From assembly GCA_021202275.1 (NCBI GenBank), contig JAJQDI010000025.1, forward strand, positions 8,112 to 72,111: a stretch of DNA of 64,000 nt, read 5' to 3'. Source of the DNA: Bacteroides sp. Lineage in GTDB: Bacteria; Bacteroidota; Bacteroidia; Bacteroidales; Bacteroidaceae. This document shows, in pieces, positions 727 to 58,780 of the stretch. Position numbers and translations under genes: made by a program. The stretch's first letter is position 1; each line of letters opens with the position of its first letter. The notes under the pieces are model-generated. The model made no database searches and was not told the DNA's origin. It worked only from the letters and a program-made list of their open reading frames with translations.

Positions 727-2433
727 ATGAAAACGATACCACTGAAAAACAGCTTTTGGAAAACGCTATGTATAGTCCTGACCGGGCTGGCCTCCACTTC
801 CTGTTCGAATTTGCTGACAGAAGAGACCTACGGAAAGCACAATTCGGATACTTATTTCGAGAATACCGAGAAACTGGAGATGGCGGTAAACGGCGTGTAC
901 GCGATCTTCAACAAACAGGCCACTTACGGACAATACTGGATGGTGTATGATTGCGATACGGATATTTCACACATCAGCGGAGCAGGTACAGGACATGTGG
1001 CGCGCGACCTGGGGCACTACAATGCCTATACAGAACACTCCTGGCTACAGGAAACCTGGATAGCCTATTACGAAGGAATAGACCGGGCCAATACGATCCT
1101 GGAGAAGAAAGAGGACGTAAAGATAGCGGACAGCGCGGATCAGAAACTCTTTGACCGGCTGATCGCACAGACCAAGACCCTGCGGGCCATGTGTTTTTTT
1201 GATCTGACCCTGCTGTGGGGAGATGTGCCCATGAAACTCACCCCTTCCCAGGCAAGTGAAGATTTCATGCAGGGACAGACCCCGCGTGACGAAGTATACG
1301 CACAGATCATCACCGACCTGGAAGAGGCTATTCCGGATCTGCTCTGGCACGATGACCCCGGACAACACGCCGAGCGTATCTCGAAAGGTGCGGCTATGGG
1401 ACTACTGGCCAGAGCTTACCTGTACAGAGGGGGATATTCGTTGCATAACAACAACGGTACAGGTACCATGAAACGCTCAGACAACTATCAGGAATATTAC
1501 CGAAAAGCACAAACGGTACTGAACGAACTTATCAGCTCCGGCAAACACGGCCTGCTGGAAGGAGAGACTGTAGACGGAGAATTCCGCAGTGGATACGAAA
1601 AGACATTCCGCAATATGTGCGAAACGATTTACAACGCTTACGAGAATATCTGTGAACTCTCTTTTTTCACCCCTACGGGGCAGAACTACGGTTCTTTCAT
1701 GGGCACCTACAACGGACCTGCGATCAACGATCAGTCTATCTATGGAAGGGCCAATTCATTTATCAAAACACATTGTTTTTTCTACGATACGTTTGAGGAA
1801 GATGACCTGAGAAAAGATGTAGCGGTAGCTACCTTTGAGATCAATGCGGCCAGCGAGATCAAACAGATCGACAGAGAAAAGAGCCAGAACTGGGCTCCCG
1901 GAAAATGGCGTCGCAACTGGCATACCGGAGCGGTTAAGGGCAACAACGACACAGATGTGAACTGGGTATTGCTACGCTATTCGGATGTATTGCTGATGAG
2001 TGCCGAGGTAGAGAACGAACTGGCCGGAGGTCCCAACGACACAGCTATAGAAAGAGTCAATCAGGTACGCCGCCGCGCGTTCGGCAAACCCTATCTGATC
2101 CAAGATAACAACGTGGATCTGAAACTCAGCGACTTCTCCGGAAAAGAAGATTTCTTCACCTTCCTGACAGAAGAGCGGGCACGGGAACTCTGTTTCGAAG
2201 GGTTGCGCCGTCAGGATCTGATCCGTTGGAACCTGATTGAAAAAGCCATCAAAAAGACGCACGAACAATTCCTGGGCTACTTCAATTCGGCCAATGGAAA
2301 TGCTTATACGTTCCGTGCCGGTGAGTTCTTCACACCGGGCAAGCACGAACTATACCCTATTCCGGCACGTGAAGTACGGGAAACAAAAGGTGCGCTGATA
2401 CAAAATCCGGGATATACGAACGCGGAAGAATAA
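727..2433 (+). CDS. susD: SusD/RagB glycan-binding lipoprotein
   Basis: Lipoprotein signal (LASTSC). SusD motifs WGDVPM, AAMGLLARAYL, LLRYSDVLLMSAE, ERARELCFEGLRRQDLIRW, LYPIP. Confidence 0.95.
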   Translation: MKTIPLKNSFWKTLCIVLTGLASTSCSNLLTEETYGKHNSDTYFENTEKLEMAVNGVYAIFNKQATYGQYWMVYDCDTDISHISGAGTGHVARDLGHYNAYTEHSWLQETWIAYYEGIDRANTILEKKEDVKIADSADQKLFDRLIAQTKTLRAMCFFDLTLLWGDVPMKLTPSQASEDFMQGQTPRDEVYAQIITDLEEAIPDLLWHDDPGQHAERISKGAAMGLLARAYLYRGGYSLHNNNGTGTMKRSDNYQEYYRKAQTVLNELISSGKHGLLEGETVDGEFRSGYEKTFRNMCETIYNAYENICELSFFTPTGQNYGSFMGTYNGPAINDQSIYGRANSFIKTHCFFYDTFEEDDLRKDVAVATFEINAASEIKQIDREKSQNWAPGKWRRNWHTGAVKGNNDTDVNWVLLRYSDVLLMSAEVENELAGGPNDTAIERVNQVRRRAFGKPYLIQDNNVDLKLSDFSGKEDFFTFLTEERARELCFEGLRRQDLIRWNLIEKAIKKTHEQFLGYFNSANGNAYTFRAGEFFTPGKHELYPIPAREVRETKGALIQNPGYTNAEE

Positions 2434-2436
2434 AGA

Positions 2437-2737: not shown

Positions 2738-2778
2738 CTTTTGTATTATATTTGGGTAACCAAACCGGAAGACACGTC

Positions 2779-6870: not shown

Positions 6871-7123
6871 AAGACATTGAACCTCTATTTTATTCCTTTC
6901 AACAATTCAGGACAAGCAGAAATAAGTCATGCGCTATTTTTGCTTTCGTAACGGAGATGACAGGCAGATCTCTGTTTCCCACTCCGGAGAACAGGAGAAA
7001 CAGATCCGGAAATCCCGAACCGGAATGATCCCTGCGCCCGGGAAAAGTGAGAGAAGAGCCGGTCACCGGGAAAAATCTCCTGACAGAAAAGTTGAATCGT
7101 TAAAATATAAGGAATACATACGT

Positions 7124-8392
7124 ATGAAAAAAAGAGTTTTACTACTGGCAGTAAGTGCTGCCCTAATCTTCACCGGATGCCGGAAAGAAACGGACCCATC
7201 CTACAATTGGGTCCGGAAAGGTATAGAAACAGCCACAGCGCAGCTTCTTCGTACTTCCGGCGAAGTAGCCCATACCGGAATGCTACCCCGCTCCATCTGG
7301 GTAGGATACGATATGGATTTTCTGTGCGCGCAACTCGAACGGGACCCGGCCACATTCAAAGACTCGCTGCGGGTGATGCCTGTGGAGAAGCTGGGCGAAC
7401 GCCGGCTCTGCCACATCTATGACTGGACCAGCGGCTTTTATCCCGGTACACTCTGGTATCTGTACGAACTGACGGGCAATCCGGAACTTCTCCGGTATGC
7501 CACTCACTTCACCAACCTGCTCTATCCGGTGCGGGAATACACAGGTACACACGATCTGGGATTTATGATCCATTGCAGTTTCGGCAACGCGGCCCGTCTG
7601 GCTCCGCACGACTCCATCGCGCCGATCCTGGTACAGACAGCAGATAATCTGATCTCCCGTTTCGATCCGGAGATCGGATGTATCCGTTCGTGGGATTTCG
7701 GATGGTGGAATTTCCCGGTGATCATTGATAATATGATGAATCTCGATCTGCTCTTTGAGGCATCACGCATCACCGGCAATCCCAAATACCGGGAGGTAGG
7801 CATCAAACACGCGCTGGTGACCATGAAGCATCATTTCCGGCCGGATCATTCTTCGTACCATGTGGTAAGCTACCACAACGACGGTACGGTAGAGGCACAG
7901 GAGACGCATCAGGGGAAGAACCACGAATCTTCCTGGGCACGCGGACAGGCATGGGCACTCTACGGATATATATCCTGTTATCAGGAAACAAGCAATCCGG
8001 CCTTCCTGAAAAAAGCAGAAGACATCGCGCGGTTCATTATGGAACGGGTGACTACAGAAGACCTGATCCCCTATTGGGACTACGACGCACCCGACACTCC
8101 GGAAACTCCGAGAGACGCTTCGGCAGCCTCTGTCACGGCATCGGCACTGATCACACTCAGTACGCTGGTCAGCAACGGAGAGGTTTATTTAACCTACGCG
8201 GAAACCCTATTGAAGAATCTGTCGTCACCTGATTATCTGGCCAGACCGGGAGAGAATCAGGGATTCATTCTGATGCATTCTACCGGCTCACTGCCCAACG
8301 GATCGGAAATAGATACTCCACTCAACTATGCGGATTACTATTACCTGGAGGCGCTCAAACGCTACGTGGACCTGAAGAAATTGACGATTTAA
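7124..8392 (+). CDS. GH88 unsaturated glucuronyl hydrolase (lipoprotein)
   Basis: Signal MKKRVLLLAVSAALIFTGC. Motifs DWTSGFYPG, THDLGF, IIDNMMNL, WARGQAW, RDASAA, YADYYYLEAL. ATG 7124 is the likely start. Confidence 0.93.
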   Translation: MKKRVLLLAVSAALIFTGCRKETDPSYNWVRKGIETATAQLLRTSGEVAHTGMLPRSIWVGYDMDFLCAQLERDPATFKDSLRVMPVEKLGERRLCHIYDWTSGFYPGTLWYLYELTGNPELLRYATHFTNLLYPVREYTGTHDLGFMIHCSFGNAARLAPHDSIAPILVQTADNLISRFDPEIGCIRSWDFGWWNFPVIIDNMMNLDLLFEASRITGNPKYREVGIKHALVTMKHHFRPDHSSYHVVSYHNDGTVEAQETHQGKNHESSWARGQAWALYGYISCYQETSNPAFLKKAEDIARFIMERVTTEDLIPYWDYDAPDTPETPRDASAASVTASALITLSTLVSNGEVYLTYAETLLKNLSSPDYLARPGENQGFILMHSTGSLPNGSEIDTPLNYADYYYLEALKRYVDLKKLTI

Positions 8393-8420
8393 CGATGGAC
8401 GATTTACTATTTACGATTGA
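8381..8420 (+). repeat. Heptamer arm H2 overlapping the GH88 stop
   Basis: TTGAC GATTTAAC GATGGAC GATTTAC TATTTAC GATTGA. The GH88 TAA (8390-8392) lies inside the arm. Only a weak partner arm near 8506-8524. Confidence 0.75.
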
Positions 8421-8572
8421 TGTTAGTTTTTAAATCAGATCGGATGTATACCGGTAGGCCCAGCAACCGTAGTGCCTGTAGCCCTCGTATAAAAGAATAT
8501 CATCCGAATCGTAACCGATAAACCATGCACGATCGCAGATCCTCTGAATGATCAAACCTAAAAATAATTAGT

Positions 8573-10594
8573 ATGAACTACCTAGTAAAAAAACTTTTGT
8601 ACATCATCTGCCTGATCTGCACTACCGCATTACAGGCACAACAACTACGCCCGGAAATATTCTCTCTGATAGACCTCAACTATCCGGGACTGGAACAAGT
8701 AAGATCCCTGCATCAGGAAGGCAACGACGTTGCAGCGGCAGAAGCATTGCTTGCCTATTACCGCCAGCGCAGTCACATCAACCACCCCGAAGTAAATCTC
8801 AACAACGTAACGATCAGCAAACAGGAGCAACAATGGGCCGATGACGCGCTGGAGCATACATTCTTTGTACACAAAGGCTATCAGCCCTCTTACAACTACG
8901 GTAAAGACATCAACTGGCAATACTGGCCCATCAAAGACAACGAACTCCGCTGGCAGTTGCATCGCCACAAATGGTTCTCCCCGATGGGAAAAGCCTACCG
9001 GGTGACGGGCGACGAAAAATATGCCCGGGCATGGGTACACCAATACATGGATTGGATCCTCAAAAACCCACTTACAGGAACAAATAAACAACCACACAAA
9101 CTCATCAGCAGCGGCGAAGTGAAAAGAGACGCGGAGAATGCACGTTTTGCCTGGCGACCACTGGAGGTAAGTCACCGTCTGCAAGACCAGACAGGTCAGT
9201 TCCTCTACTTCCTGTCCTCTCCTTCCTTCACACCGGAATTCCTGACCGAATTCCTGGTCAATTACCACCGTCATGCCCTGCATATCTCAGCCAATTATTC
9301 CGACACAGGCAATCATTTGCTGTTCGAAGCCCAACGCATGATCTACGCAGGTGCTTTCTTTCCCGAATTCAAAGAGGCCGGATCGTGGAGAAAAAGCAGT
9401 ATTGAGGTGCTGAACCGGGAAATCCACCTGCAGGTTTATCCCGATGGCGGACACTTTGAACTCGACCCACACTACCACCTGGCCGCGATCAACATCTTCT
9501 GCAAAGCACTCTTTATGGCCGATGTGAACGGATTCCGGAATGAATTTCCAGCCACTTACCTGGATACCGTAGAAAATATGATTCTTTTCTACATGAACAT
9601 CTGCTTCCCGGATTACACCAATCCTTGCTTCAGTGATGCCAAACTGGGCGATCGCAAAAATGAGCAGAAAAACTACCTGATCTGGAACCGGATATTTCCG
9701 GACAACCAGCAGATCCGTTATATGGGTACAGCCGGAAAAGAAGGAGTACCTCCCCACCAGCTTTCCAGGCCCTTCAAACACTCCGGATTCTTCGTTTTCC
9801 GCAACTCCTGGAAAGAAGAAGCCACGATAATGGTACTGAAAGCCGGACCAAAGGGGTTCTGGCATTGCCAGCCGGATAACGGAACATTCGAATTGTGGTT
9901 CAACGGTCGCAATCTCTTCCCCGACTCCGGGGCGTATGTCTATGCCGGAAATGAAGTGATGGAATTGCGTAACTGGTTCCGCCAGACCCGGGTGCACAAC
10001 ACCCTGACTCTGGACGGACGCAACTTAGAAACGACCGAATCGGTGTGCCTGCACTGGCAGGGAGAGGGAGAGGTACAGACCTTAGTCACTGAAAATCCCT
10101 CTTACGAAGGATTGCGACACCGACGCACTGTCTTCTTTGTAGATAATACCTATTTCGTGGTGGTAGATGAAGCCATTGGCAACGCCACAGGAGAAGTCAA
10201 TCTGAACTATCAATTGTGCGAAGGGGAGGTAAAGATCGACGCAGACCGTCATATCCTGCTTTCACAATTCGAAGGCGACAGCAATGTCAAACTCCAGTGT
10301 TTCGCGGAGAAAGGAACTACCCTGCGTGAAGAAGAGGGCTGGCGTTCTACCGCCTACCGCCAACGTGTGGAACGCACAGCCGTCTCTTTCAATACTCCCA
10401 AAAAGCAAGGAGATACCACCCGATTCATCACTGTGATCTATCCGGTGAAAGATGCAGCGCAGGCGCCTCAGCTATCTGCTAAGTTCACAACAAAAAAATT
10501 CAGTGAGAACCGGGTAGACGTAGAGGTGAAAGTAGACAATAAAAGCCGCAAACTAAGTTGCGAATGGCAAAGAGATTTACGATTTACTGATTGA
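8573..10594 (+). CDS. hepC: Heparin-sulfate lyase, heparinase II/III family (PL12)
   Basis: Signal peptide. Motifs DNELRWQLHRHKW, NHLLFEAQ, FELDPHYH, WHCQPDNGTFEL, HNTLTLDG. Heparin PUL context. Confidence 0.9.
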   Translation: MNYLVKKLLYIICLICTTALQAQQLRPEIFSLIDLNYPGLEQVRSLHQEGNDVAAAEALLAYYRQRSHINHPEVNLNNVTISKQEQQWADDALEHTFFVHKGYQPSYNYGKDINWQYWPIKDNELRWQLHRHKWFSPMGKAYRVTGDEKYARAWVHQYMDWILKNPLTGTNKQPHKLISSGEVKRDAENARFAWRPLEVSHRLQDQTGQFLYFLSSPSFTPEFLTEFLVNYHRHALHISANYSDTGNHLLFEAQRMIYAGAFFPEFKEAGSWRKSSIEVLNREIHLQVYPDGGHFELDPHYHLAAINIFCKALFMADVNGFRNEFPATYLDTVENMILFYMNICFPDYTNPCFSDAKLGDRKNEQKNYLIWNRIFPDNQQIRYMGTAGKEGVPPHQLSRPFKHSGFFVFRNSWKEEATIMVLKAGPKGFWHCQPDNGTFELWFNGRNLFPDSGAYVYAGNEVMELRNWFRQTRVHNTLTLDGRNLETTESVCLHWQGEGEVQTLVTENPSYEGLRHRRTVFFVDNTYFVVVDEAIGNATGEVNLNYQLCEGEVKIDADRHILLSQFEGDSNVKLQCFAEKGTTLREEEGWRSTAYRQRVERTAVSFNTPKKQGDTTRFITVIYPVKDAAQAPQLSAKFTTKKFSENRVDVEVKVDNKSRKLSCEWQRDLRFTD

Positions 10595-10832
10595 CGATCG
10601 GAGACGCTTCGCTATTTACGATTTACGGATTTACGATTTACGATTGATATTACATAGATTATAAATAAAGATATGTATCACGATTATATCACTAATCCAG
10701 GGAAATTGTTTAAAGTGAAGTTAATCCCTTCAAAAGAGTTACTTCAATCGTAAATCGTAAATCGTAAAATCGTAAATAGCGAAGCGTCCCCGATTGTCAA
10801 ATCGTAAATAGCGAAGCGTCAAATCATAAATC
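10574..10832. repeat. Heptamer inverted-repeat cassette H3 between PL12 and sulfatase
   Basis: Left arm 10574-10648, right arm 10744-10832. The 22-mer GACGCTTCGCTATTTACGATTT (10603-10624) has exact reverse complements at 10767-10788 and 10799-10820. Right arm abuts the sulfatase ATG. Confidence 0.92.
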
Positions 10833-12401: not shown

Positions 12402-12875
12402 TATTGTAACAACTTATATATTAATATATGATCCAAACAAATGATACATCCATACATCGTGAAACAAGTACGTGTTCCGGATAAATTGTATATATTATAC
12501 TGTCAGGTTGCAGAGATTGGGTATACGATGTATCTATACGTGATCCGTAAGACATTTTTTTCTTATTCCCTCTGCAGAGAAGGGGATTACCTGTAGAGAC
12601 GCACGGCGTGCGTCTCCGCGATGCAAGTCCAACAGAGAAGTGCACGTCCCCTCGGTACAAGTCCAACAGAGAGGTGTGCATCTCCGAAGTATAAGTCCAA
12701 TAAAAAGACAATATACAACCTTCCCATCCGGCATGCTTAGACGCACGGCGTGCGTCTCTACAGGATACCGGAACAGCATCCGGAACAGCATATATACACT
12801 GCATATTACCATAGTTAGCTTAGTGTATAAAATATATTTTTCAATCGTAAATCGTAAATCAGTAAATCGTAAATC
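12378..12875. repeat. Heptamer cassette H4 (eroded left arm, intact right arm) containing a REPIN
   Basis: Right arm TCAATC GTAAATC GTAAATC AGTAAATC GTAAATC at 12841-12875, 3 nt before the ATG. Left remnant CCAACGGTCGACAAAGTCAATTA (12378-12400) matches the arm module at 44973 and 56232. Confidence 0.7.
12590..12764. repeat. REPIN-like doublet of GTAG-type REP palindromes with internal 34-bp units
   Basis: CCTGTAGAGACGCACGGCGTGCGTCTC ... AGACGCACGGCGTGCGTCTCTACAGG, with AAGTCCAA at 12625, 12659 and 12693. Confidence 0.9.
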
Positions 12876-12878
12876 ATT

Positions 12879-14507
12879 ATGGTAGACAGAAGAACTTTTC
12901 TTAAAAATACCGGATGGAGCCTCCTTGGGCTGGCCGCCTCCTCCTCGCTGCTGGGTGCCTGCGTACCCGGTAGCCGTGAAGCCCGCAGGATCCTGCCTTC
13001 CGCCGGCAATCTGAATATGTACTGGGGAGACCTACACAACCATTGCAACCTCACCTACGGACACGGAGACATGCGAAGTGCTTTCGAAGCTGCCCGGCAA
13101 CAACTGGACTTTGTCTCTGTAACTCCACATGCGCTGTGGCCCGACATCCCGGGGGCCAACGATCCCCACCTGAAATGGGTGATCGACTATCATACCGGAG
13201 CCTTTCTCAAGCTACGCCAGGGAGGATGGGAACAGTATGTAGCCATGACCAACGCATACAACCGGGAAGGAGAATTCCTCACATTCCTGGGCTACGAATG
13301 CCACAGCATGGAACATGGCGATCATGTGGCACTCCACTACGACCTGGACGCTCCGTTGCTGGAATGCGAGTCTGTTCCGCACCTCAAAGAGCAGCTGAAA
13401 GGCAGGAAAGCATTTGTTACCCCGCACCACATGGGATATATCGGTGGTTACCGGGGCTACAACTGGTCATGCTTCGAACCCACACAAACTCCCTTTGTAG
13501 AGATGTATTCCCGTCACGGACTGGCCGAAAGCGACCAGGGCGACTACAACTACCTGCACGACATGGGTCCCCGCCAATGGGAAGGTACCATACAATACGG
13601 ACTCGACCAGGGACACAAATTCGGAATCATGGGATCTACCGACCAGCATGCCGGCTATCCGGGCAGCTACGGCGACGGACGGATCGGACTGCTGGCTCCC
13701 TCCCTCAGCCGGGATGCGATATGGAATGCTATGGCCAACAGACAGATGTGCTGCGTCACAGGCGATAAAATCCGGATAGACTTCCGCATTAACGACGCGT
13801 ACATGGGAGATACCATCCGGGGCAACAGTCGCCGCATCTATGTGAACGTAGAAGGAGAAAGCTGCATCGACTACGTAGATATCGTGAAGAACGGCCAGAC
13901 CGTAGCCCGTCTGAGTGGTCCGCTCACTCCCGTGGCTCCACGGGAAGAGAATATACGTTGCAAAGTGAAAGTGGAATTCGGATGGAACCGGGAAGAGAAG
14001 TATGTACACTGGCAGGGAGATCTCTCCATAGACCAAGGTGTGATACATTCCGTAACCCCGTGCTTCCGGGGAGCCGCCTACACTTCTCCGCAAGAAAATG
14101 AAACCCAGTTCGAAACAAAAGTCAACCGGATCCTCTCGGTCAAGGACCAGAAAGCAGAGCTGGATATGTACAGCAGTAAAAATCCCAATACCCTCACTCC
14201 TGCCATGCAGGCAGTGATTCTGGATGTTACCATGCCCCGCGACGGAAACATCAGAGCCGACTTCAATGGCAGGGAATTCACCCATACACTGAGCGAACTA
14301 CTGCAAGGCTCCTGTTCCCATTTCATGAACGGCTGGCTCAGTGAAGCGATCCTGTTCAACCGGGCCATGCCCGAAAGTTGTTTCACCATAGAACACTATA
14401 TGGAGGATACCCAACCGCAGAAAGAGACCGACTATTATTACGTACGGGTGCGTCAGCGCAACGAACAATGGGGTTGGAGCAGCCCGATCTGGGTAGAGAA
14501 GAATTGA
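12879..14507 (+). CDS. Tat-exported PHP-fold/DUF3604-like metallohydrolase, candidate heparan N-sulfamidase
   Basis: Twin-arginine signal MVDRRTFLK. Metal motifs WGDLHNH, TPHH and GSTDQH. Lies between sulfatase and ROK, as the sulfamidase does in the B. thetaiotaomicron heparin PUL (recalled, not searched). Confidence 0.7.
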   Translation: MVDRRTFLKNTGWSLLGLAASSSLLGACVPGSREARRILPSAGNLNMYWGDLHNHCNLTYGHGDMRSAFEAARQQLDFVSVTPHALWPDIPGANDPHLKWVIDYHTGAFLKLRQGGWEQYVAMTNAYNREGEFLTFLGYECHSMEHGDHVALHYDLDAPLLECESVPHLKEQLKGRKAFVTPHHMGYIGGYRGYNWSCFEPTQTPFVEMYSRHGLAESDQGDYNYLHDMGPRQWEGTIQYGLDQGHKFGIMGSTDQHAGYPGSYGDGRIGLLAPSLSRDAIWNAMANRQMCCVTGDKIRIDFRINDAYMGDTIRGNSRRIYVNVEGESCIDYVDIVKNGQTVARLSGPLTPVAPREENIRCKVKVEFGWNREEKYVHWQGDLSIDQGVIHSVTPCFRGAAYTSPQENETQFETKVNRILSVKDQKAELDMYSSKNPNTLTPAMQAVILDVTMPRDGNIRADFNGREFTHTLSELLQGSCSHFMNGWLSEAILFNRAMPESCFTIEHYMEDTQPQKETDYYYVRVRQRNEQWGWSSPIWVEKN

Positions 14508-14550
14508 TCCCCCCTGTAGAGACGCACGCCGTGCGTCTCTACAGGGGGAT
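14507..14550. repeat. Single REP hairpin
   Basis: ATCCCCCCTGTAGAGACGCACGCCGTGCGTCTCTACAGGGGGAT, a near-perfect palindrome starting at the stop codon. Confidence 0.9.
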
Positions 14551-18407: not shown

Positions 18408-19296
18408 ATACTATAAGTAAAAAGTGGTTTTATCTTTCACCATCTCTCACTTTTTCAACTATCCCACAGATTATCAAAGGAATAATCAAGTGAGAGATAA
18501 AAATTACATACAATTTATCTCTCACTTTTGGGTTGATCTCTCACCATTACACATAAAACAGTAATTAGTAGACAATTACCACATAGGCACACCATCCTGA
18601 ACGCTTCCAGGCGCGATCAGACCTTCGCAGATGAAACGGTGTAACCTGCAAAATTCCATAGTTATCCATTTCTTCCCCGGAGAAGAATACTCCATACAGC
18701 CTGACTGATAGAAGGATGTGTGTCCGGACAAGCCATACACCCCTCTCCGAAGCAAAATGTTCATACCAGGGTATCCGGTCGCAAACTCACAGGAAACTGA
18801 CTGACCGGACTGTGGAGGCTGATTGGTCCCACGGGCTGGGACTTTATGTCCCACGGCGGGAAACGATTCGTTTCAGCCCGTGAAACCAATCGTCCCACGG
18901 GCTGGGACCACTCACATACCATAGGTACAACATTCCATCACACGGGAATGTCAGGCACTTCTCTGGGAGAAAACACAGGAAAGCTACCTGTTGTACCCCA
19001 TCTCAAAGATAACACAATACGATCTATGTACATAGACCCCTACAAAAAATAATTATTCGGGTACTTTCCCCCCCAAAAAAGAAATACCAGCCTCTGCACA
19101 GGAACTTGTGAAATAGCTTGTTCACAGGAAAAGACATCTACCCACCCCGATCCCTAAGAGTGAGAGATAAACCAAAAAGTGAGAGATAAATTGTACGTAA
19201 GTTTTATCTCTCACTTTTATATCCCACTCACTATCTGACATATACCATCAAAAGTGAGAGATAGTGAGAGATAAAACCGCTTTTTACTTATAGTAT
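18408..19296. mobile_element. Non-coding element bounded by 137-bp imperfect inverted repeats rich in ATCTCTCAC/GTGAGAGAT
   Basis: 18408-18544 versus reverse complement of 19160-19296: outer 47 bp have 3 mismatches, inner 56 bp have 4, middle about 34 bp diverged. No transposase inside. Confidence 0.7.
18826..18908. repeat. 22-bp-period array of quasi-palindromic units
   Basis: GTCCCACGGGCTGGGAC (18826), GTCCCACGGCGGGAAAC (18848), GTTTCAGCCCGTGAAAC (18870, inverted type), GTCCCACGGGCTGGGAC (18892). Confidence 0.85.
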
Positions 19297-25492: not shown

Positions 25493-25570
25493 CCTTTAAA
25501 CACCTTTAAACAAAATGGAATATCGGTTCCTGCCCACAACTAACTAACCCGTAACAGAAACCAATGAGGG

Positions 25571-25727
25571 GATTTACGATTGGACTATTTACGATGTACG
25601 ATTTAAATTTCATCGTTGAATGATGCCGTTTTTACTGTTGCTTGACTTACCGGTAGCTCTTGTCTGAAAATAGAATAAGCAGGATAGGTAATATCAATCG
25701 TAAATCGTAAATAGTCCAATCGTAAAT
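25571..25727. repeat. Heptamer inverted-repeat cassette H5 downstream of eda
   Basis: 25572-25605 versus reverse complement of 25694-25727: 32/34 match, both arms carrying the GATTGGAC TATTTAC variant. On the - strand the arm starts 3 nt after the eda TAA. Confidence 0.92.
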
Positions 25728-25731
25728 ATCT

Positions 25732-26403
25732 TTATTTTCTCGCCTCAGCAATATAGCCGAACGCTTCCTGACATTTAGCAGTTACCCATGCCCAATCGCC
25801 GGCTTCAAGTACCTCTTTGGGGAAAAGGTTAGAACCCATACCCACACAGGTGACTCCCGCTTTGATCCAGGCGGTCAGATTTTCCTTAGTTGGTTCTACC
25901 CCACCGGTTACCATCAGCATAGACCAGGGCATCGGGGCTTTTACATTCTTCACAAAAGAAGGTCCACCCACATTACCTGCGGGGAATACCTTGCAAAGAT
26001 CACAACCCACTTCCTGAGCAAAACCGATCTCAGAAACCGAACCGCATCCCGGAGTATAAGGGATCAGGCGACGGTTACAGATCTTTGCGATCTCCGGATT
26101 GAACAACGGACCTACAATGAAATTTGCACCCAATTGGATGTAAAGCGCCGCAGTAGCAGGATCTACGACAGAACCGATACCGATGATCATATCGGGACAC
26201 TCTTTGGCTGCCCATTTGACCAGTTCGGCGAAAACGTCCTGTGCGAAATCACCTCTATTGGTGAATTCAAATGCGCGGACACCCCCTGCATAGCAAGCTT
26301 TTACTACATTCTTTGCAACTTCCGCGTCTTTATGATAGAAAACAGGTACCATTCCGGTACTTGCCATTGCGTTGAGAACCTGGATTTTATTAAATCTTGA
26401 CAT
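25732..26403 (-). CDS. eda: 2-keto-3-deoxy-6-phosphogluconate / 4-hydroxy-2-oxoglutarate aldolase
   Basis: [38 protein letters not shown]. Adjacent to kdgK. Confidence 0.95.
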
Positions 26404-26409
26404 GATTAT

Positions 26410-26915
26410 ATTTACGATTTACTGATGTACGATGTACGATTTATTTTTCACTTTAAACTATAGGGTTCATCACTGTTTCTGGCGAAGAGTAAGAATGGCA
26501 CTCACTATAATTTTATACAATTCCTGAGCTTCGCGCATTAGCCCTGCCAGTTTTTCCTCCGGGATCATTCCACTTTCAATAATCATTTTCAGCCAATGAA
26601 TGGTTTCATCCAGTTCCTCCTCTACTGTTTTAAGCTTATTAAGAAAATCCTTGCCTGACTTAGCCAGACAAGCGGCTCTGTAATTAGCTGCCGGAGATGT
26701 ACCGGATCGAATAATCTGCCGGGCTATGGCATAGCCTGCAAGTGTAGAAGGTAGATGATCTACCATTTTAATGATCCTTAGAGAAAAAGTCTTCAGCCTC
26801 AACTTCAACTCCTCACGATTCATCGCCATATAGTATATATATTATCTACGATTTACCGCTCTACGACATAGAATGTATTTCCAAATCGTACATCGTAAAT
26901 CAGTAAATCGTAAAT
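26410..26915. mobile_element. Heptamer inverted-repeat cassette H6 carrying a four-helix-bundle gene
   Basis: Arms 26410-26442 and 26883-26915 are reverse complements at 32/33 positions. The cassette fills the kdgK-eda gap. Mobility is inferred. Confidence 0.75.
26470..26829 (-). CDS. Four helix bundle protein (TIGR02436 / 23S rRNA IVS protein-like, Avd fold)
   Basis: QIIRSGTSPAANYRAACLAKSGKDFLNKLKTVEEELDETIHWL is the family signature; 119 aa. Confidence 0.92.
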   Translation of the reverse strand: MAMNREELKLRLKTFSLRIIKMVDHLPSTLAGYAIARQIIRSGTSPAANYRAACLAKSGKDFLNKLKTVEEELDETIHWLKMIIESGMIPEEKLAGLMREAQELYKIIVSAILTLRQKQ

Positions 26916-26919
26916 CCCT

Positions 26920-28190: not shown

Positions 28191-28415
28191 GATTTACGAT
28201 GTACGATTGAGATTACATGATGGAGTATTCTCATGCTAATAACGTGAAAAGATGTATGATGGAACTATTTATCAATAAGGGGGACAACCATAGTACTATA
28301 AATAAGGTAAGGAAAGATAGGATGTATAATGGACTTTAGTGTATGGTTTTTATTCAGGAAAAGACAAGGAAGGAATATAAATCGGATATGGTAAATAGTT
28401 AAATCATAAATCGTA
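28191..28415. repeat. Degenerate heptamer cassette H7
   Basis: GATTTAC GATGTAC GATTGA at 28191-28210; eroded GTAAATAGTTAAATCATAAATCGTA at 28391-28415. Confidence 0.6.
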
Positions 28416-32949: not shown

Positions 32950-33101
32950 CCTGTAGAGACGCACGGCGTGCGTCTCAGCATACCGAATGGGAAGACATAG
33001 CCCCTACAGAATACATTTTTTATTGGACGCATACCTCAGAGAGACACACACTTCCGGATTGGACCTACACCGCGGAGACGCACGCCGTGCGTCTCTACAG
33101 G
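32950..33101. repeat. REPIN-like doublet of the same GTAG REP family
   Basis: CCTGTAGAGACGCACGGCGTGCGTCTC...GAGACGCACGCCGTGCGTCTCTACAGG. The reverse complement aligns with 12570-12770 but has two internal units. Confidence 0.9.
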
Positions 33102-42969: not shown

Positions 42970-43328
42970 AGCAGTCAGACGGTTTGTCGCTCACAGGATC
43001 TGTGGGAGGAAAGTCCGGGCAACACAGAGCACCCTACTTCCTAACGGGAAGCTGTCCGTGAGGGTAGAGCAACGTAGAAGAAAAGAACCGCCGTTTTCCT
43101 GGAGGAAACGGTAAGGGTGAGAAGGTGGGGTAAGAGCCTACCAGTCTTATGGTGACATAAGGGCTGTACGTCTTAGGGGTTGTAAGGTCATGTATACCGA
43201 CGTTAAGAGGGCTGCTCGCCCCATGTCGGAGGGTAGACCGCTAAAGTGGAACGGTGACGTTTCACTCAGATAAATGACAAACGCCCTGCTTGTAGGGAAC
43301 AGAACCCGGCTTACAGGCTGACTGCTTT
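42970..43328 (+). ncRNA. rnpB: RNase P RNA (bacterial type A)
   Basis: GAGGAAAGTCCGGGC, GGGTAAGAGCC, AACAGAACCCGGCTTAC. Ends pair (AGCAGTCAG / CTGACTGCT). -7 box TATCTTTG just upstream. Confidence 0.97.
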
Positions 43329-43395
43329 TTTTATTGTTTTATAGGGAACCGGTCCAAACTCCCCGGAGCCTGCAATTGTTTTATCTACTTCATGA

Positions 43396-43628: not shown

Positions 43629-44954
43629 ATGAAAATAGGCCAACAGGTTACTAAATTCTGGAAGTTCATCTCGAACGATATCTGGCGGGTAACAGAAGAT
43701 GAAGTTACAAAAAGGAAATTCTCTTTCTATACGATCATCAAAACGCTGTATATCGCTATCGAACAGTTTAGTAAAGACCGGGTCATCAACAGGGCTTCCG
43801 CACTTACCTACAGTACGTTGCTGGCTATCGTACCCATCCTGGCCATTGTATTTGCCATCGCACGGGGATTTGGTTTTGCCAATCTGGTAGAGAACCAGTT
43901 CCGGGACGCCTTCGGAGGAGTGAACGATACAACGGAAACCATACTTCATTTTGCGGACTCTTACCTGTCGCAGACCAAGAGCGGTATTTTCATCGGTATC
44001 GGTCTTATTCTATTGTTGTGGACTGTAATCAATCTGATCAACAACATCGAACGTACGTTCAACCAGATATGGGATATCAAAAAATCGCGGACACCTTACC
44101 GGAAACTAACCGATTACTTTTCTATCATCCTGCTGGTACCGCTTCTCATTGTGATCTCTGCCGGAGCTTCTATTTTCGTCAGCACCATCATGAAGGGAAT
44201 AGAAGATTTTGTGATACTGGCACCGATCATCAAATTCCTGATACGTTCTGTACCGTTTGTATTGGTCTGGCTGATGTTTACCGGTTTATATATGTACATG
44301 CCTAATACCAAAGTGAAATTCAGGTATGCTCTTGTGGCGGGCATACTGGCCGGTACTGCTTATCAGTTGTTTCAATACATATATATCAGCGGACAGTTAT
44401 GGGTATCCCGCTACAATGCGATATACGGTAGTTTCGCTGCTCTTCCACTGTTCCTTCTCTGGCTCCAGACCTCCTGGACGATCTGTCTGTTCGGAGTAGA
44501 GTTTACGTACGCGGGACAAAATGTGAATAATTTCAGCTTCGACAAGGATACACGGAACATCAGCCGCAGGTACCGGGATTTTATTTCCATCCTGATCATG
44601 TCTATTATCGTGAAACAATTTCAAAGAAATGAGACTCCTTATACAGCGGAAGAGATCTCCCAGACATATAAGATCCCGATCAGGCTCACCAAACAAGTCC
44701 TCTATCAACTACAGGAGATCAAATTGATCCATGAATTTATCATTGATGATAAAAACCAGGATATCGGTTTCCTGCCTTCTGTAGATATCAATCAGCTGAA
44801 TGTAGCTACTTTACTCGACCGGATAGATACATTTGGTTCGGAAGATTTTAAAATAGATACAGAAACAGAATATAGTCAGCCCTGGCAGGTACTGATCGAA
44901 GCCCGGGAAGAATATTACAGAAATGCCAGCCAAGTGCTGCTCAAAGACCTGTAA
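43629..44954 (+). CDS. YihY/virulence factor BrkB family membrane protein with C-terminal wHTH-like region
   Basis: ASALTYSTLLAIVP, IERTFNQIW, YNAIYGSFAALPLFLLWL. Confidence 0.9.
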   Translation: MKIGQQVTKFWKFISNDIWRVTEDEVTKRKFSFYTIIKTLYIAIEQFSKDRVINRASALTYSTLLAIVPILAIVFAIARGFGFANLVENQFRDAFGGVNDTTETILHFADSYLSQTKSGIFIGIGLILLLWTVINLINNIERTFNQIWDIKKSRTPYRKLTDYFSIILLVPLLIVISAGASIFVSTIMKGIEDFVILAPIIKFLIRSVPFVLVWLMFTGLYMYMPNTKVKFRYALVAGILAGTAYQLFQYIYISGQLWVSRYNAIYGSFAALPLFLLWLQTSWTICLFGVEFTYAGQNVNNFSFDKDTRNISRRYRDFISILIMSIIVKQFQRNETPYTAEEISQTYKIPIRLTKQVLYQLQEIKLIHEFIIDDKNQDIGFLPSVDINQLNVATLLDRIDTFGSEDFKIDTETEYSQPWQVLIEAREEYYRNASQVLLKDL

Positions 44955-45030
44955 TATTTACGATTTACTGAACCAACGGTCGACGAAGTCAACCAACGGT
45001 CAGCGAAGCTAATTACGATTTACGATTGAA
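44955..45030 (+). repeat. Lone heptamer left arm H8 with CCAACGGTCGACGAAGTCAA module
   Basis: Starts immediately after TAA: TATTTAC GATTTACT GAACCAACGGTCGACGAAGTCAA CCAACGGTCAGCGAAGCTAA TTAC GATTTAC GATTGAA. Confidence 0.85.
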
Positions 45031-45234
45031 ATTCCTTTTCATTTAATAGTCTGAATGCAGGCTCACAAATAGGATGTGATTTAAGGATCTACCAGAGGAG
45101 TCCCACTAAATAAACGAATCCCATACTACATACAGACATATTCAAGTACCAGAGGCAAACCAGCAGTTCTCTGGTATGGAATAAAAAGTTGTAATCAGTT
45201 TCCCGGACAACTGTGCCTATATACCGGCACAGAT

Positions 45235-55911: not shown

Positions 55912-56043
55912 GTTTATAAAATACAATGATACATTATTAAAAAACTATGATCTATTATTGGGGCTGCCTACAATCGCGCCTTGTAAATGGAGGCTGTATA
56001 TCCCGTCAGTTACAAAGGTTACACCGCGGAGACATAGTTTATA

Positions 56044-56083: not shown

Positions 56084-56114
56084 AAGTGCATAACAACATA
56101 AGAATATACATTTT

Positions 56115-56272
56115 AAATCGTAATTGATTTCATCGACCGTTGGTTCAGTAAATCGTAAATCCCTCCCCGTATTAACAAATAGATGCTCATGTAAATAGAT
56201 TTATACCCGTATTTCAAATCGTAAATCGTAATTGACTTCGTCGACCGTTGGTTCAGTAAATCGTAAATCCCT
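56115..56272 (-). repeat. Tandemly duplicated heptamer arm H9 (two 50-bp copies, 108-bp period)
   Basis: 56115-56164 and 56223-56272 differ at 2 positions. On the - strand the arm starts TGA-AGG-GATTTAC after the GH2 stop. Confidence 0.9.
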
Positions 56273-58780
56273 TCATTTTGCCTGTAAACGAACATCCGCC
56301 TGTTTCAGGTTTGCGGAAGTAGCTGTCAGACGAATGTCTCCGGCATTGCCATCATTCCGGATCACAACCAGGCATTTTCCGTAAAAGGCTTCCCGCTGCG
56401 GAGCTTTGAAGCTCTCTAAGGAAGTCTGGCTTCCGTTGTCCACACCGGCAACAAAACCGGCACCCTGTACATCGAAATGTACCAGATTGTTTGCGTTGGG
56501 ACACAGATTGCCATCCTTATCTAAGATCTCTACCGTTACGAAACTCAGGTCCGTACCATCCGCGTGTATCAGGTCGCGGTCTGCCGTCAGACGGATCTGA
56601 GCGGGTTCGCCTGCCGTATGTATTTCCTGCTCCTTCACCACCTTACCGTTTTTGTGGGAAACAGCTTTGATGCTACCCGGTTGATACTCCACACGCCACC
56701 ACACGTGATAGGTATCCGGTTCTTTGCTTTTGCTGCCCTGAGACACGCCATTCACAAACAACTCCACTTCATCGGCATTGTTGTAATAGGCCCACAGATC
56801 AATGATCTGTCCCGGCTCCCAGTTCCAGTGTGGAAAGAGATGCAAAACCGTCTGATCGGTCCACTCGCTCTGATACATATAATATACATCCTTCGGAAAT
56901 CCGGCCAGATCGATGATACCAAAATAGGAACTGCGCGCCGGATACCAATAAGGAGTTGGCTCTCCCAGATAGTCAAATCCGGTCCAGATATACATCCCGC
57001 TGATGAAATCATGGTTCTTCACCCATTTCCAGCTTTCTTCATGGGTTGTTCCCCAGGGCACATGGCAATTGTCGTACGAAGAGCAGGAATAACTTTCGTC
57101 ATAGAAAGGAATATCCCAGCGCACGGGCCAGATATACATCGAGTCACTGGGCACCCGGTAGTATCCGCGCGTCATCAGCGCCGAGGTAGACTCTGTCACA
57201 ATGAAAGGCATGCCCGGAAAATTCTCAGGGACATTGGCAAAGTCTTTTTCGTGGTAATTAAATCCGATCATGTCCAGTGCGTTGGCCCGGAACAGATGAT
57301 TGCTTGGGCTGGGCTCGTTGTTACCGGTAGTGATGGGGCGTGTAGGGTCCAGTTCCCTTACCATATCCGCGAGTTTTCTGGTGAGCAGGGAGTTCACACT
57401 CATCTCTTCTCCTTCGGCAGCCAATGTACTCGGGTCACGCTTGAAGTTAAGAAGCAGGTTGGCCGACTGTATATCCAGCGTATCGGCATTGGCATCGGTC
57501 CACTGTTCGAGCACCTCGTTACCAATGCTCCACATAAAGATGGAAGCGTGATTGCGATCCCGTTTGATGTGATCGGTCAGATCTCTTTCGTGCCATTCGT
57601 TGAAATAGCGGGAATAGTCGTGAGCCGTCTTTCGTTTGCGCCACATATCGAAAGTCTCATTCTGTACGATAAATCCCATACGGTCGCACAGTTTCAGCAG
57701 TTCGGGAGCAGGCGGATTGTGCGCGCAACGGATGCCGTTGCATCCCATCTCTTTCAGTATTTCCAGTTGCCGTTCCAGTGCCCGTACATTCACAGCAGCT
57801 CCCAGACACCCCAGATCATGGTGCTGGCAGACACCTTTGATCTTCACCGGTTGTCCATTGAGGAAGAAACCTTTGTCCGCGTCAAAATGAAAATCACGGA
57901 CCCCGATCCGCGTGTCGTAATTATCTACCAATTTCCCATCCACCCGTACTTCGGTACGTACGGTATACAGGTAAGGATCTTCCAGGGTCCAGAGTGTCGG
58001 ACGATCGAAAGCGATCTGCTGATGGGTCTCTGCGGCCTCCTCTTTCGTGAGAGACACCTGAGTAGTTACTTTCGCCACACTGCCGCCTGACGCGTTCAGC
58101 AATACGGAAGTCAGCTCTGCCCGCGTGTCTGTCTCTCCGTCGTTTTTCAAAGTTGTAGCGATCTCTACTACGGCCTTTTCCGAGGTAGCTACCGGAGTAG
58201 TGATGTATGTACCCCACAGGTCTACATGCACCGGATCGGTCACCGTCAGCCAGACATTGCGGTAGATGCCGCAACCACTGTACCAGCGGGAGTTGGGTTG
58301 CTCGCTGTTGTCTACCCGCACCGCCAGTACATTCTTCTCACCCGGACGCAGATAAGGGGTCAGATCGTGTCTGAAAGAGATATATCCATAGGGACGTATC
58401 CCCAATGAAGTACCGTTGATAAACACTTCGGCATTCATATAGACACCGTCAAAATCTACAAAGGTCTTCTTACCTGCTGCCGAAGCATCCGGCACAAATG
58501 TCTTCCTGTACCAGCCAATACCCCCGGGAAGTGCTCCTCCTCCGCTGCCGGAAGGATTGTCGGGACTGAAAGAGCCCTCTATGGCCCAGTCGTGAGGCAG
58601 TTGGAGACGACGCCACCCGGAATCATCGAAATCCGCAGACGATGCTTCCGGCACATCTCCCAGATGGAAGGTCCAGTCCGCATTGAAACTCGTGTGTTCT
58701 CTTGCAGACTCACTCCGGACTGCACATCCCGTCAGCAGTCCTGCCAGGCATAACCAAACAAGCAAGGAAATATTCTTCAT
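56273..58780 (-). CDS. GH2 beta-galactosidase
   Basis: Lipobox LLTGC. LPHDWAIE, GVCQHHDLG, NHASIFMWSIGNE, WTGFDYLGEP. Confidence 0.93.
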   Translation of the reverse strand: MKNISLLVWLCLAGLLTGCAVRSESAREHTSFNADWTFHLGDVPEASSADFDDSGWRRLQLPHDWAIEGSFSPDNPSGSGGGALPGGIGWYRKTFVPDASAAGKKTFVDFDGVYMNAEVFINGTSLGIRPYGYISFRHDLTPYLRPGEKNVLAVRVDNSEQPNSRWYSGCGIYRNVWLTVTDPVHVDLWGTYITTPVATSEKAVVEIATTLKNDGETDTRAELTSVLLNASGGSVAKVTTQVSLTKEEAAETHQQIAFDRPTLWTLEDPYLYTVRTEVRVDGKLVDNYDTRIGVRDFHFDADKGFFLNGQPVKIKGVCQHHDLGCLGAAVNVRALERQLEILKEMGCNGIRCAHNPPAPELLKLCDRMGFIVQNETFDMWRKRKTAHDYSRYFNEWHERDLTDHIKRDRNHASIFMWSIGNEVLEQWTDANADTLDIQSANLLLNFKRDPSTLAAEGEEMSVNSLLTRKLADMVRELDPTRPITTGNNEPSPSNHLFRANALDMIGFNYHEKDFANVPENFPGMPFIVTESTSALMTRGYYRVPSDSMYIWPVRWDIPFYDESYSCSSYDNCHVPWGTTHEESWKWVKNHDFISGMYIWTGFDYLGEPTPYWYPARSSYFGIIDLAGFPKDVYYMYQSEWTDQTVLHLFPHWNWEPGQIIDLWAYYNNADEVELFVNGVSQGSKSKEPDTYHVWWRVEYQPGSIKAVSHKNGKVVKEQEIHTAGEPAQIRLTADRDLIHADGTDLSFVTVEILDKDGNLCPNANNLVHFDVQGAGFVAGVDNGSQTSLESFKAPQREAFYGKCLVVIRNDGNAGDIRLTATSANLKQADVRLQAK

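Follow-up and report, generated by a model that had tools for sequence, protein, structure and literature searches.

GATTTAC heptamer arrays that abut stop codons throughout a Bacteroides genome are very probably the stem-forming arms of a class of hairpin cassettes built around a PF05635 (S23p) gene. This link between the arms and the four-helix-bundle/rRNA-intervening-sequence gene family is the main point of the present analysis and was absent from the first-pass annotation, which had read the exact arm positions as targeting of the stop codon or selection at the level of translation; that interpretation was partly supported overall. The four-helix-bundle heptamer-hairpin cassette is a class that is not in print as such.

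The window, a stretch of 64,000 nucleotides from Bacteroides sp., holds 39 copies of GATTTAC where 9.3 are expected. Its arms and associated features are listed below, with d as the number of nucleotides between stop codon and arm.

2431-2480, + strand: left arm after susD, TAA (2431-2433)-AGA-GATTTAC (2437) array-GATTGAAATAACA; pairs with 2694-2745 in the predicted fold
2694-2745, - strand: right arm of the susD cassette, 14 nt before a TTG at 2752 (longest-ORF start of a hybrid two-component regulator)
8382-8425, + strand: arm containing the stop of a GH88-like gene (6929-8392; gene by Pfam), d = -7
10562-10657, + strand: double left arm; the heparinase II/III ORF enters the arm and stops at TGA 10592-10594, d = -21
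10737-10831, - strand: right arms of the heparinase II/III-side cassette, ending 0 nt before the sulfatase ATG (10833)
12838-12881, - strand: right arm, 3 nt short of the ATG at 12879; orthologous arm in the sister MAG
25558-25614, + strand: left arm of the cassette downstream of eda
25684-25742, - strand: right arm abutting the eda stop, TAA (25732-25734)-AGA-TATTTAC; native eda C-terminus
26399-26450, + strand: arm stopping 5 nt short of the eda start codon (ATG, 26403); 3' side of the stem around the four-helix-bundle gene
26470-26829, - strand: 119-aa four-helix-bundle gene in the loop, PF05635 (23S rRNA intervening sequence protein), E = 4e-15
26878-26928, - strand: arm abutting the kdgK stop, TAA (26920-26922)-AGG-GATTTAC; 5' half of the gene-enclosing stem
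28191-28219, + strand: solo partial arm, inner half only
44949-45035, + strand: arms after a BrkB/YihY-like gene, TAA (44952-44954)-TATTTAC (d = 0), interleaved with the module GAACCAACGGTCGACGAAGTC
56145-56281, - strand: arms plus the GAACCAACGGTCGACGAAGTC module after a GH2 gene, TGA (56273-56275)-AGG-GATTTAC

The junctions at susD, kdgK, GH2, eda and YihY are all in the sequence as first described, and so are the right arms said to end 0 nt (10833) and 3 nt (12879) before an ATG; at eda the distance is 5 nt and not the 6 nt given earlier. The arms of the susD cassette (2431-2480 and 2694-2745) are 91% complementary over 47 nt, and the predicted fold has a minimum free energy of -115 kcal/mol (z = -8.8).

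Across the whole 4.43 Mb genome, 308 GATTTAC arrays were found with a strict rule and 372 with an nhmmer profile (E < 0.01), of which only 8 of 372 are intragenic. About 300 gene-less xATTTAC-heptamer arms occupy approximately 220 intergenic regions (7% of all); most of these junctions span just tens of bases in an arm-free relative. The median intergenic length is 313 nt here and 38 nt in the distant, arm-free genome G048. Genes were called with a codon-usage caller built for this analysis, which gave 3,328 genes and is crude (80% coding coverage). Every copy lies between, or at the ends of, protein-coding genes, and rRNA-like contigs are without any arms. A single arm is a direct heptamer array and not a palindrome; inverted arms lie 30-530 nt apart, with 93 convergent pairs genome-wide, and the two arms of one pair often differ in unit number. 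Paired arms of ORF-less cassettes are weakly more alike than non-pairs (23.3 vs 21.1), and the arms of one locus co-vary (27.6 vs 16.1; 0 of 5000 permutations).

The first-pass annotation saw a fixed, precise position of the arms, and named a match to random intergenic placement as the outcome that would speak against it. The genome-wide distance histogram is not random. Among 169 arms facing a gene 3' end, the form stop-NNN-GATTTAC (d = 3) occurs 49 times against 1.8 expected (Poisson tail 1e-51), and T|GATTTAC, with a TGA or TAA overlapping the first unit (d = -2), 27 times against 1.8 (Poisson tail 1e-22). The expectation of 1.8 per position is that of uniform placement in the same intergenic region and becomes 4.4 if the spacer is set to 38 nt. 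Within -2 to +3 nt of the stop lie 97 of the 169 arms. The start-facing arms (n = 138) peak at d = 5 before the ATG (16 vs 0.5 expected), the start side being less certain than the stop side since start calls, based on the longest ORF, are cruder.

The choice between stop-codon targeting and selection is narrowed by the origin of the stops and by the sequence next to them. The stop codons at the arms are the genes' own: kdgK ends with ...GRVSR* or ...GRVQR* in 30 homologues, and for 10 of 17 genes with d = 3 the protein terminates at the position found in a distant relative. In most species the orthologous kdgK junction retains a spacer of 3 nt, although its letters vary (AGG, AGC, AGA, ATT, TTT, GCT). 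An outer hexamer, YRAAGR, belongs to the consensus of the arm family and is present away from genes too; in arms not located at the stop of a long ORF, position -6 is T in ~37% and C in ~37%, and the Y-R-A preference at -6 to -4 persists. TAG was found at none of the 49 arms with d = 3 (p = 4e-4). The T|GATTTAC and TA|GATTTAC classes have no TRA/hexamer element outside the first unit.

The sole gene-bearing cassette of this genome lies between kdgK and eda (window 26398-26925). Its GATTTAC arms form a stem of 33 nt with 97% complementarity around the PF05635 gene, and the predicted fold has z = -5.4. Only two PF05635 genes are present in the genome, and one of ~130 cassettes carries a gene. 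A total of 2,285 homologues of the 119-aa protein were found. In nine other Bacteroides species, homologues with 59-72% identity share this location, kdgK-[arm]-gene-[arm']-eda, and have xATTTAC arms, and a Prevotella MAG has a copy between pheT and yebC in the arrangement TAG-ATT-arm ... arm-AAACT-ATG. On a Planktothrix plasmid, the protein is 50% identical and the arms are again GATTTAC, with drmD ending in T|GATTTAC and a second cassette ending 6 nt before the ATG of MmeI. The heptamer core is kept across phyla at 50% protein identity. Of the 12 genomes that have this protein lineage, 9 contain dimers of GATTTACGATTTAC, as do 6 of the 109 that lack it (Fisher p = 8e-8; 121 Bacteroides genomes); at least six such dimers are present in 7 of 12 and 0 of 109, respectively (p = 1e-8). 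This co-occurrence of gene and arm could stem from shared descent or co-transfer instead of a functional tie.

PF05635 lineages other than that of GATTTAC carry different heptamer arms, with a period of 7 in 26 of 29 armed loci. An inverted-repeat score of at least 35 was obtained for 16 of 24 PF05635 loci and for 0 of 322 control ORFs, and arm similarity tracks protein identity (Spearman 0.68; Mantel 0/2000). One such heptamer family, AATTGAG, is spread in 49 of 121 genomes. The cassettes are wedged between two cistrons with their edges at stop and start, as at kdgK-eda, pheT-yebC and drmD-MmeI: an upstream stop lies within -9 to +5 nt of the arm edge at 24 of 29 armed loci, and an ATG within -2 to +13 nt of the arm at 23 of 29. 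The stop at the arm edge in 24 of 29 loci, with other lineages and other heptamers, argues that the fixed arm position is a trait of the whole cassette family and no local oddity. The stop-abutting pattern recurs in three other Bacteroides species, where 16 of 42 arms are flush with the stop of an ORF that has 100 codons or more, as well as in the Prevotella MAG and on the Planktothrix plasmid.

We propose that the arrays are copies, without the gene, of a hairpin cassette whose complete form includes a small gene, and that this accounts for their start at stop codons. The hairpin would fill the entire spacer between two cistrons. Its stem would begin 3 nt after the upstream stop codon, or overlap it, and in complete cassettes would close about 5 nt short of the following ATG. 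This register would result from the outer consensus YRAAGR, which with T in first place reads TAA or TGA and so coincides with the native stop; where the hexamer is missing, the stop would overlap the first unit (T|GATTTAC, TA|GATTTAC). The cassettes are presumably co-transcribed with the operon. Their stems of 30-45 bp may be cleaved by RNase III as in rRNA intervening sequences, or may hold stop and start adjacent, and either route would leave the expression of the flanking cistrons undisturbed, which would explain why only boundary-flush copies persist. The genome has an RNase III gene, and for 71 of 97 stop-flush arms the predicted fold pairs 70% or more of the arm, which makes such processing plausible; cutting of the stems by this enzyme is put forward tentatively, as somewhat less than probable. 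The stronger conservation of arms than of cassette interiors, detailed below, is in line with the cassette account as well. The whole package of cassette identity, stop placement and processing is one that we favour by a modest degree.

Several findings count against the cassette account, namely the restriction of the gene to just one of ~130 cassettes, the weak likeness of paired arms in ORF-less cassettes, and the lack of an enzyme, a target-site duplication or a clean filled/empty pair among the sites searched. The sister MAG, 91% identical, has almost every arm site too, with differences in unit number and module content only, and movement was not observed. A stem closing stop to start, suggested in the first-pass annotation, is the usual layout of gene-bearing cassettes, but in this genome just 13 of 163 co-directional intergenic regions are closed in this way at both ends. 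Neither this number nor the arm frequency, which is equal in convergent and divergent intergenic regions, fits a single function on operon transcripts.

Alternatively, the arms could be REP-like regulatory hairpins selected by the host, with no mobile cassette: a stop-flush stem would stall or recycle the ribosome, protect the 3' end or couple translation, and the four-helix-bundle gene would be a mere passenger at one locus. The exact spacing, kept at the kdgK junction despite changed spacer letters, would be expected of such hairpins, as would the strength of the stems. The arms are also far better conserved than the cassette interiors, with identities to the sister MAG of 88.9% for arms, 75.3% for interiors and 91.0% for flanks, and in E. 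coli, REPs located up to 15 nt from a stop cause ribosome stalling and reduced expression, according to work cited in PMC12306157. However, heptamer type and protein lineage go together across genomes and phyla, and the GATTTAC family has no members in most of the genus, including the distant genome G048, a patchiness not expected of a general host function. Arms are moreover as frequent in divergent regions as in convergent ones, and many are far from any gene end. We consider such host-selected hairpins unlikely.

Neutral space-filling appears similarly improbable. Slippage would grow and shrink the arrays, deletion bias would shrink the spacers, and arrays would end where purifying selection begins, without function or targeting. 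Such a process would account for the locus L025, where four units stand against one in the orthologous arms with both boundaries unchanged, for the merging of stop and arm edge in several registers (+3, +1, 0, -1, -2) and for the 13 cases in which an ORF reads into the arm. It does not account for the hexamer YRAAGR, conserved although not part of the repeat, which separates the stop from the first unit and is present away from genes too, for the greater conservation of arms than of interiors between species (89% vs 75%), or for a heptamer core kept across phyla at 50% protein identity, and slippage cannot create new arrays at ~220 separate sites.

An ordinary MITE with heptamer-rich terminal inverted repeats, a transposase elsewhere and TRA or A-rich targets commonest at gene ends is very unlikely: it would fit the inverted pairs, the patchy distribution, the Y-R-A preference off genes and insertion at junctions whose spacers are short in a relative, but there are no target-site duplications or direct repeats (flanks of one pair are as alike as those of shuffled pairs), no transposase in the stretches of up to 8 kb that separate convergent arms and no Y1/RAYT gene or PF01797 in this 95% complete genome. 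Paired arms are often unequal in unit number, and ~45% of arm-bearing regions have arms of a single orientation only. A DNA-level TRA preference cannot distinguish an in-frame stop from many other TRA triplets, and a TRA target is altogether missing in the T|GATTTAC and TA|GATTTAC classes.

Among known systems close to the cassettes are the ORF-bearing 23S rRNA intervening sequences of Coxiella burnetii, Leptospira and Xanthomonas (Warrier et al., 2016, PMC4990558). Both have a PF05635 gene in the loop of a long terminal-inverted-repeat stem, though here in one of ~130 cassettes, a purine-rich motif (AGAAGA there, AAGR here) followed by tandem heptamers of strain-variable number, and a sporadic distribution that suggests horizontal spread; in the Coxiella intervening sequence, AGAAGA precedes tandem heptamers whose number varies between strains, and RNase III cuts at the first repeat (PMC4990558). 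The intervening sequences sit in helix 25/45 of the 23S rRNA, whereas the elements here lie between protein-coding cistrons, most of them gene-less and in hundreds per genome. RNase III excision has been shown for the former and would apply to the arms by analogy.

The arms match the definition of heptamer simple sequence repeats: tandem 7-nt units in 2-6 copies, intergenic, with ORF-tied orientation and variable copy number. Abundant intergenic heptamers have been described as GGGNATC in Xanthomonas and Nostoc (Rehm et al., 2015, PMC4692102) and as TAACTGA in Beggiatoaceae, Cyanobacteria and Bacteroidetes (MacGregor, 2015, PMC4679880). As here, they comprise two to six tandem units with about four preferred, are sited between aligned ORFs with the coding-strand form at most 50 bp from a stop, or across it, and the complementary form ahead of starts, show between-strain indels in 7-nt steps, and have no identified mobile element; the largest TAACTGA class ends 1 nt before a start codon (PMC4679880). 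These authors read them as G-quadruplexes or regulator-binding sites, without a link to PF05635 genes or inverted pairing, and binned the distances (0-50 bp), whereas single-nucleotide registers and a different heptamer are reported here.

Correia/NEMIS elements of Neisseria likewise are short intergenic inverted-repeat elements folding into long hairpins, co-transcribed with their neighbours and cut or bound by RNase III (PMC2649163, PMC2229807). They differ from the arms in having defined 26-bp ends and a TA duplication, no tandem heptamers and no reported exact stop register.

With enterobacterial REP/BIME and REPIN-RAYT systems the arms share dispersed extragenic repeats in transcription units, mosaics of modules in alternating orientation, many copies near stop codons, with possible ribosome stalling (cited in PMC12306157), and one dedicated gene per repeat family. 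Unlike these, the arms are not palindromic and have no GTAG head, the genome lacks a RAYT/Y1 transposase, and the associated gene encodes a four-helix bundle without known catalytic activity; the direct-array form and the missing PF01797 do not match the REP/REPIN-RAYT definition.

Arrays had also been thought to supply A-rich leaders. This is compatible with the data, but arm-adjacent genes are not enriched, the A fraction in the 20 nt before the ATG being 0.404 against 0.401 for all genes. The window also holds a second, GTAG-type repeat family, which fits the short-imperfect-palindrome/GTAG-head half of the REP definition.

The window contains 39 copies of GATTTAC against 9.3 expected. These heptamers are gathered into short arrays of 2-6 units (arms), inverted pairs of which bracket 30-530 nt of variable DNA (the cassette interior). 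The usual arm consists of an A-rich stretch followed by YRAAGR-GATTTAC-GATTTAC-N-GATTTAC-GAT(G/T)TAC-GATTGAAATTACA. A 13-aa micro-ORF within the arm, starting from the ATG of AAATGAAGA, was dropped because TAA occupies that position in half of the arms. The first-pass annotation had described arms that begin at a fixed position behind stop codons, and all stop junctions it named were found in the window sequence, with Pfam supporting the gene names. Its distances from right arms to ATGs were correct at 10833 and 12879, while the one before eda is 5 nt and not about 6.

Arm junctions with stop and start codons in the window
2431: susD stop junction, TAA-AGA-GATTTAC
26920, minus strand: kdgK stop junction, TAA-AGG-GATTTAC
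56273, minus strand: GH2 stop junction, TGA-AGG-GATTTAC
25732, minus strand: eda stop junction, TAA-AGA-TATTTAC
44952: stop junction of a BrkB/YihY-like gene, TAA-TATTTAC
10833: ATG, right arm ending 0 nt before it
12879: ATG, right arm ending 3 nt before it
26403: ATG of eda, right arm ending 5 nt before it

The genome surveyed (Bacteroides, 4.43 Mb in 33 contigs, with the window at C11:8112-72111) contains 308 arrays under a strict rule and 372 in a profile search, and 98% of arrays are intergenic. Distances (d, from the stop to the first unit of the arm) were taken to genes from our own codon-usage caller, which is crude, its stop positions being reliable and its starts less so. Among the 169 arms whose outer end faces the 3' end of a gene, 49 lie at exactly d = 3, and in another 27 the stop overlaps the first unit (T-GATTTAC), while 1.8 arms per position are expected if arms are spread evenly over the intergenic region concerned and 4.4 if they may lie anywhere in a 38-nt spacer. 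In total, 97 of these arms lie within -2 to +3 nt of the stop. Six further arms at d = 11 are apparently mostly d = 3 arms behind a degenerate first unit, and ORFs reading into an arm number 13 genome-wide. On the other side, 16 of the 138 start-facing arms, against 0.5 expected, leave a gap of 5 nt to the ATG and read CAT-RAAGR-GATTTAC, the remainder lying mostly more than 30 nt from the start. The observed distances are thus far from random (49 and 27 against 1.8 per position), and random intergenic placement, the outcome set earlier as the refutation of the fixed position, is therefore excluded.

The share of arm-bearing regions is the same in co-directional, convergent, and divergent gene pairs (6-7% each), and of the 163 co-directional regions, gene-less arms close both ends in only 13. 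The earlier proposal of a long stem closing stop to start thus describes the layout of complete cassettes but not that of most arms here. As to the idea that the arrays supply A-rich leaders, the leaders provided by arms are compatible with initiation in Bacteroidetes but show no enrichment in A (0.404 against 0.401 in the average leader of the genome).

Two enzymes of a polysaccharide-utilisation locus, a heparinase II/III-like gene (8573-10594, d = -21) and a GH88-like gene (6929-8392, d = -7), have their last residues and stop encoded within an arm.

Judging from sequence comparison, the stops at the arm edges are the genes' own. In all 30 kdgK homologues fetched, the protein ends in GRVSR or GRVQR directly before the stop. 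Of 17 genes at d = 3 with an orthologue in a distant, arm-free Bacteroides genome (G048), 10 stop at the identical residue and the rest a few residues off. TAG is absent as a stop at d = 3 (0 of 49, p = 4e-4) and is found instead at d = 1 (TAGG-G) or d = -1 (TA-G). Moreover, the YRAAGR hexamer is also present in arms distant from any gene, and position -6 of arms not at the stop of a long ORF is T in about 37% and C in about 37% of cases. The native stops, the registers of TAG, and the occurrence of YRAAGR away from genes therefore lead us to a description of the junction that fits these sequences best, namely the outer edge of the arm merged with a native stop, in any register that the letters permit.

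As far as can be seen, the arms and cassettes are not a classical transposon. No target-site duplication was found at the arm pairs, the flanks within a pair being as alike as shuffled flanks, nor were extended inverted repeats found. The genome carries neither an autonomous element or transposase gene between its arms nor a RAYT/Y1 transposase gene, and the two arms of gene-less pairs are just slightly more alike than non-pairs. An Rfam search of the cassettes returned no family, and phage records gave no match. In the sister MAG Bacteroides sp. U_126749, which is about 91% identical and syntenic, arms are present at nearly all the same sites; sites that looked empty proved on inspection to hold arms in a reduced or degenerate state. 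Neither the sister MAG nor G048 nor the same-species contigs yielded a clean empty site. The two genomes differ in unit number (4 vs 1, with both boundaries fixed), in tandem duplication of arm modules, and in the expansion of composite cassettes; identity is 88.9% in arms, 75.3% in cassette interiors, and 91.0% in the mostly coding flanks. G048, of which 1.2 Mb was retrieved, was rejected as an empty-site reference owing to its DNA identity of only about 70%, and its use was confined to comparing the C-termini of proteins and the lengths of spacers. In stretches of gene order common to both genomes, the median length of the arm-bearing regions is 313 nt in this genome and 38 nt at the matching positions of G048, and the arms therefore sit at positions that elsewhere are short operon junctions. 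Contigs of the same strain, taken from public runs (L235 and L236), are identical and end 36-38 nt upstream of eda, within the arm.

The sole ORF enclosed by an arm pair is a 119-aa gene between kdgK and eda, a four-helix-bundle member of PF05635 ("23S rRNA intervening sequence protein", S23p). PF05635 genes at 30 loci of other Bacteroides species are likewise flanked by inverted tandem-repeat arrays: an inverted-repeat score of 35 was reached in 16 of 24 such loci and in none of 322 control ORFs, and the period is 7 in 26 of 29 armed loci. The heptamer differs by protein lineage (AGCTACG, AATTGAC, GAGTTAT, AATTGAG/AATTAAA, AGTTGAA, AATTATG), and arm similarity correlates with protein identity (Spearman 0.68; Mantel, 0 of 2000). 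Arm edges were taken from local alignments and may deviate by several bases; measured from them, an upstream ORF of 80 or more codons ends within -9 to +5 nt of the arm edge in 24 of the 29 armed loci, and a downstream ORF begins within -2 to +13 nt of it in 23. The flush geometry therefore belongs to the whole cassette class, of which the GATTTAC arms are very probably members. A second PF05635-like gene of this genome, outside the window (C24:71354-71656), scores weakly (28.8 bits), resembles Avd, and lacks heptamer arms; it is probably part of a diversity-generating retroelement.

In 9 further species, close homologues of the window protein (59-72% identical) occupy the same kdgK-gene-eda locus and are bracketed by xATTTAC arms. 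In these species, 3 nt of varying sequence separate the kdgK stop from the first heptamer, and 4-8 nt separate the end of the right arm from the eda start. Across species, the left arm of a locus changes together with its right arm (own 27.6 vs cross 16.1; 0 of 5000 permutations). The same layout occurs at an independent site in a Prevotella MAG (pheT-TAG-ATT-arm ... arm-AAACT-ATG-yebC). At another, on a Planktothrix agardhii plasmid, drmD ends in T-GATTTAC, followed by a four-helix-bundle gene 50% identical to that of the window, and a second cassette stops 6 nt before the MmeI ATG. The Planktothrix cassettes (L207, NZ_LR882964.1, 1260-2100) are part of a defence island, with DISARM drmD on one side and an MmeI-type enzyme on the other, and their GATTTAC arrays are accompanied by a second heptamer, CCCCAAT / CCCAAAT, in six copies each.

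The dimer GATTTACGATTTAC has 153 copies here and none in most of 121 Bacteroides genomes. Of the 12 genomes with the protein lineage of the window, 9 contain it, as do 6 of the 109 without that lineage (p = 8e-8, kinship ignored), and at least 6 copies occur in 7 of 12 and 0 of 109, respectively (p = 1e-8, kinship ignored). A second heptamer family, AATTGAG, is present in 49 of the 121 genomes and absent from this one; it is high in G007, G018, G060, and G071, all Bacteroides genomes with its cognate protein lineage, and reaches 57 dimers per genome in inverted pairs 60-120 nt apart. In the kdgK-eda spacers of species lacking the four-helix-bundle gene there (L074, L077, L079-L082), repeat remnants of the GAGAGTTGA type remain, and the eda ATG is still preceded by AGTAAATAATAAG, the end of the right arm; this suggests that the cassette was lost from these spacers.

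In the Coxiella intervening sequence, a long stem, excised by RNase III, carries a PF05635 gene in its loop, and the 5' part of this stem consists of AGAAGA followed by tandem heptamers in strain-variable number (PMC4990558). The arms here, AAGR followed by (GATTTAC)n, are built in the same way. GGGNATC repeats of Xanthomonas and Nostoc lie on the coding strand at most 50 bp from, or overlapping, the stop and on the non-coding strand before starts, with four units preferred (PMC4692102), while TAACTGA repeats stop 1 nt before start codons (PMC4679880). The papers on these three systems contain neither a tie between PF05635 and repeats nor single-nucleotide registers. No paper with either was found in the literature, and searching by sequence string returned nothing relevant. 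To our knowledge, there is no accepted explanation for S23p intervening sequences or for abundant bacterial heptamer repeats. Both puzzles appear here as one system, a lineage-matched gene and hundreds of arms, in a host genus open to genetic manipulation.

Of the 97 stop-flush arms, 71 are at least 70% paired in the predicted fold. The predicted stems are long and nearly perfect (fold z-scores -8.8 and -5.4), with their base at the cistron boundary, and the genome encodes RNase III. The cassettes would be transcribed together with the operon. RNase III might then cut out the hairpin as in rRNA, in which case the upstream cistron would retain its stop and the downstream one would receive a very short leader; we put this processing step forward tentatively, at somewhat less than even chances. 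Alternatively, the stem may keep the stop within a few nucleotides of the start, and coupling would then survive an insert of 100-500 nt. Copies sparing the boundary would persist, giving rise to the sharp registers. Since the geometry is simple and quantitative, with the stem base at the stop and complete cassettes ending about 5 nt before the next start, concrete tests are possible, including RNase III processing, coupling across the hairpin, and protein-repeat binding.

A wider and rather unlikely reading is that the PF05635 protein and its own heptamer arrays are partners that recognise each other by sequence, perhaps with each pentamer subunit reading one 7-nt unit, and that gene and arrays form a self-propagating system whose copies settle precisely at the boundaries of cistrons and within rRNA helices. 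Such a system would be comparable to REPIN-RAYT as a proposed gene and array system, but without a known nuclease. This genome would then represent the state after a burst, with about 300 arms cognate to a single gene; much unexplained bacterial heptamer-repeat DNA (Xanthomonas, Nostoc, Beggiatoaceae, Bacteroides) would be the footprint of the system, and the stop+3 / ATG-5 geometry a rule for living inside operons.

The arms also bear on annotation and operon prediction in gut Bacteroides, as 7% of intergenic regions are longer because of them. In polysaccharide-utilisation loci, some enzymes receive their stop codon or last residues from arms, and the repeats break short-read assemblies.

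Other elements were noted as well. A REP-like, GTAG-headed palindrome, CCTGTAGAGACGCACGGCGTGCGTCTCTACAGG, occurs in the window at 12590-12764, 14510-14548, and 32950-33101, and genome-wide it often adjoins arms (TAGAGACGCAAAGA-GATTTAC) or nests within them. Arms are also interleaved with a third module, GAACCAACGGTCGACGAAGTC, at 44968-45012, 56120-56147, and 56230-56255. At one locus (L049), a 24-nt hairpin of the GAACCAACGGTCGACGAAGTC module is all that this genome carries, compared with a composite cassette of 590 nt at the orthologous site of the sister MAG. A non-coding element of about 890 bp (18408-19296) has 142-nt inverted ends that are 81% complementary and unrelated to the heptamer arms, and a bacterial RNase P RNA of class A is located at 42971-43329 (243 bits).
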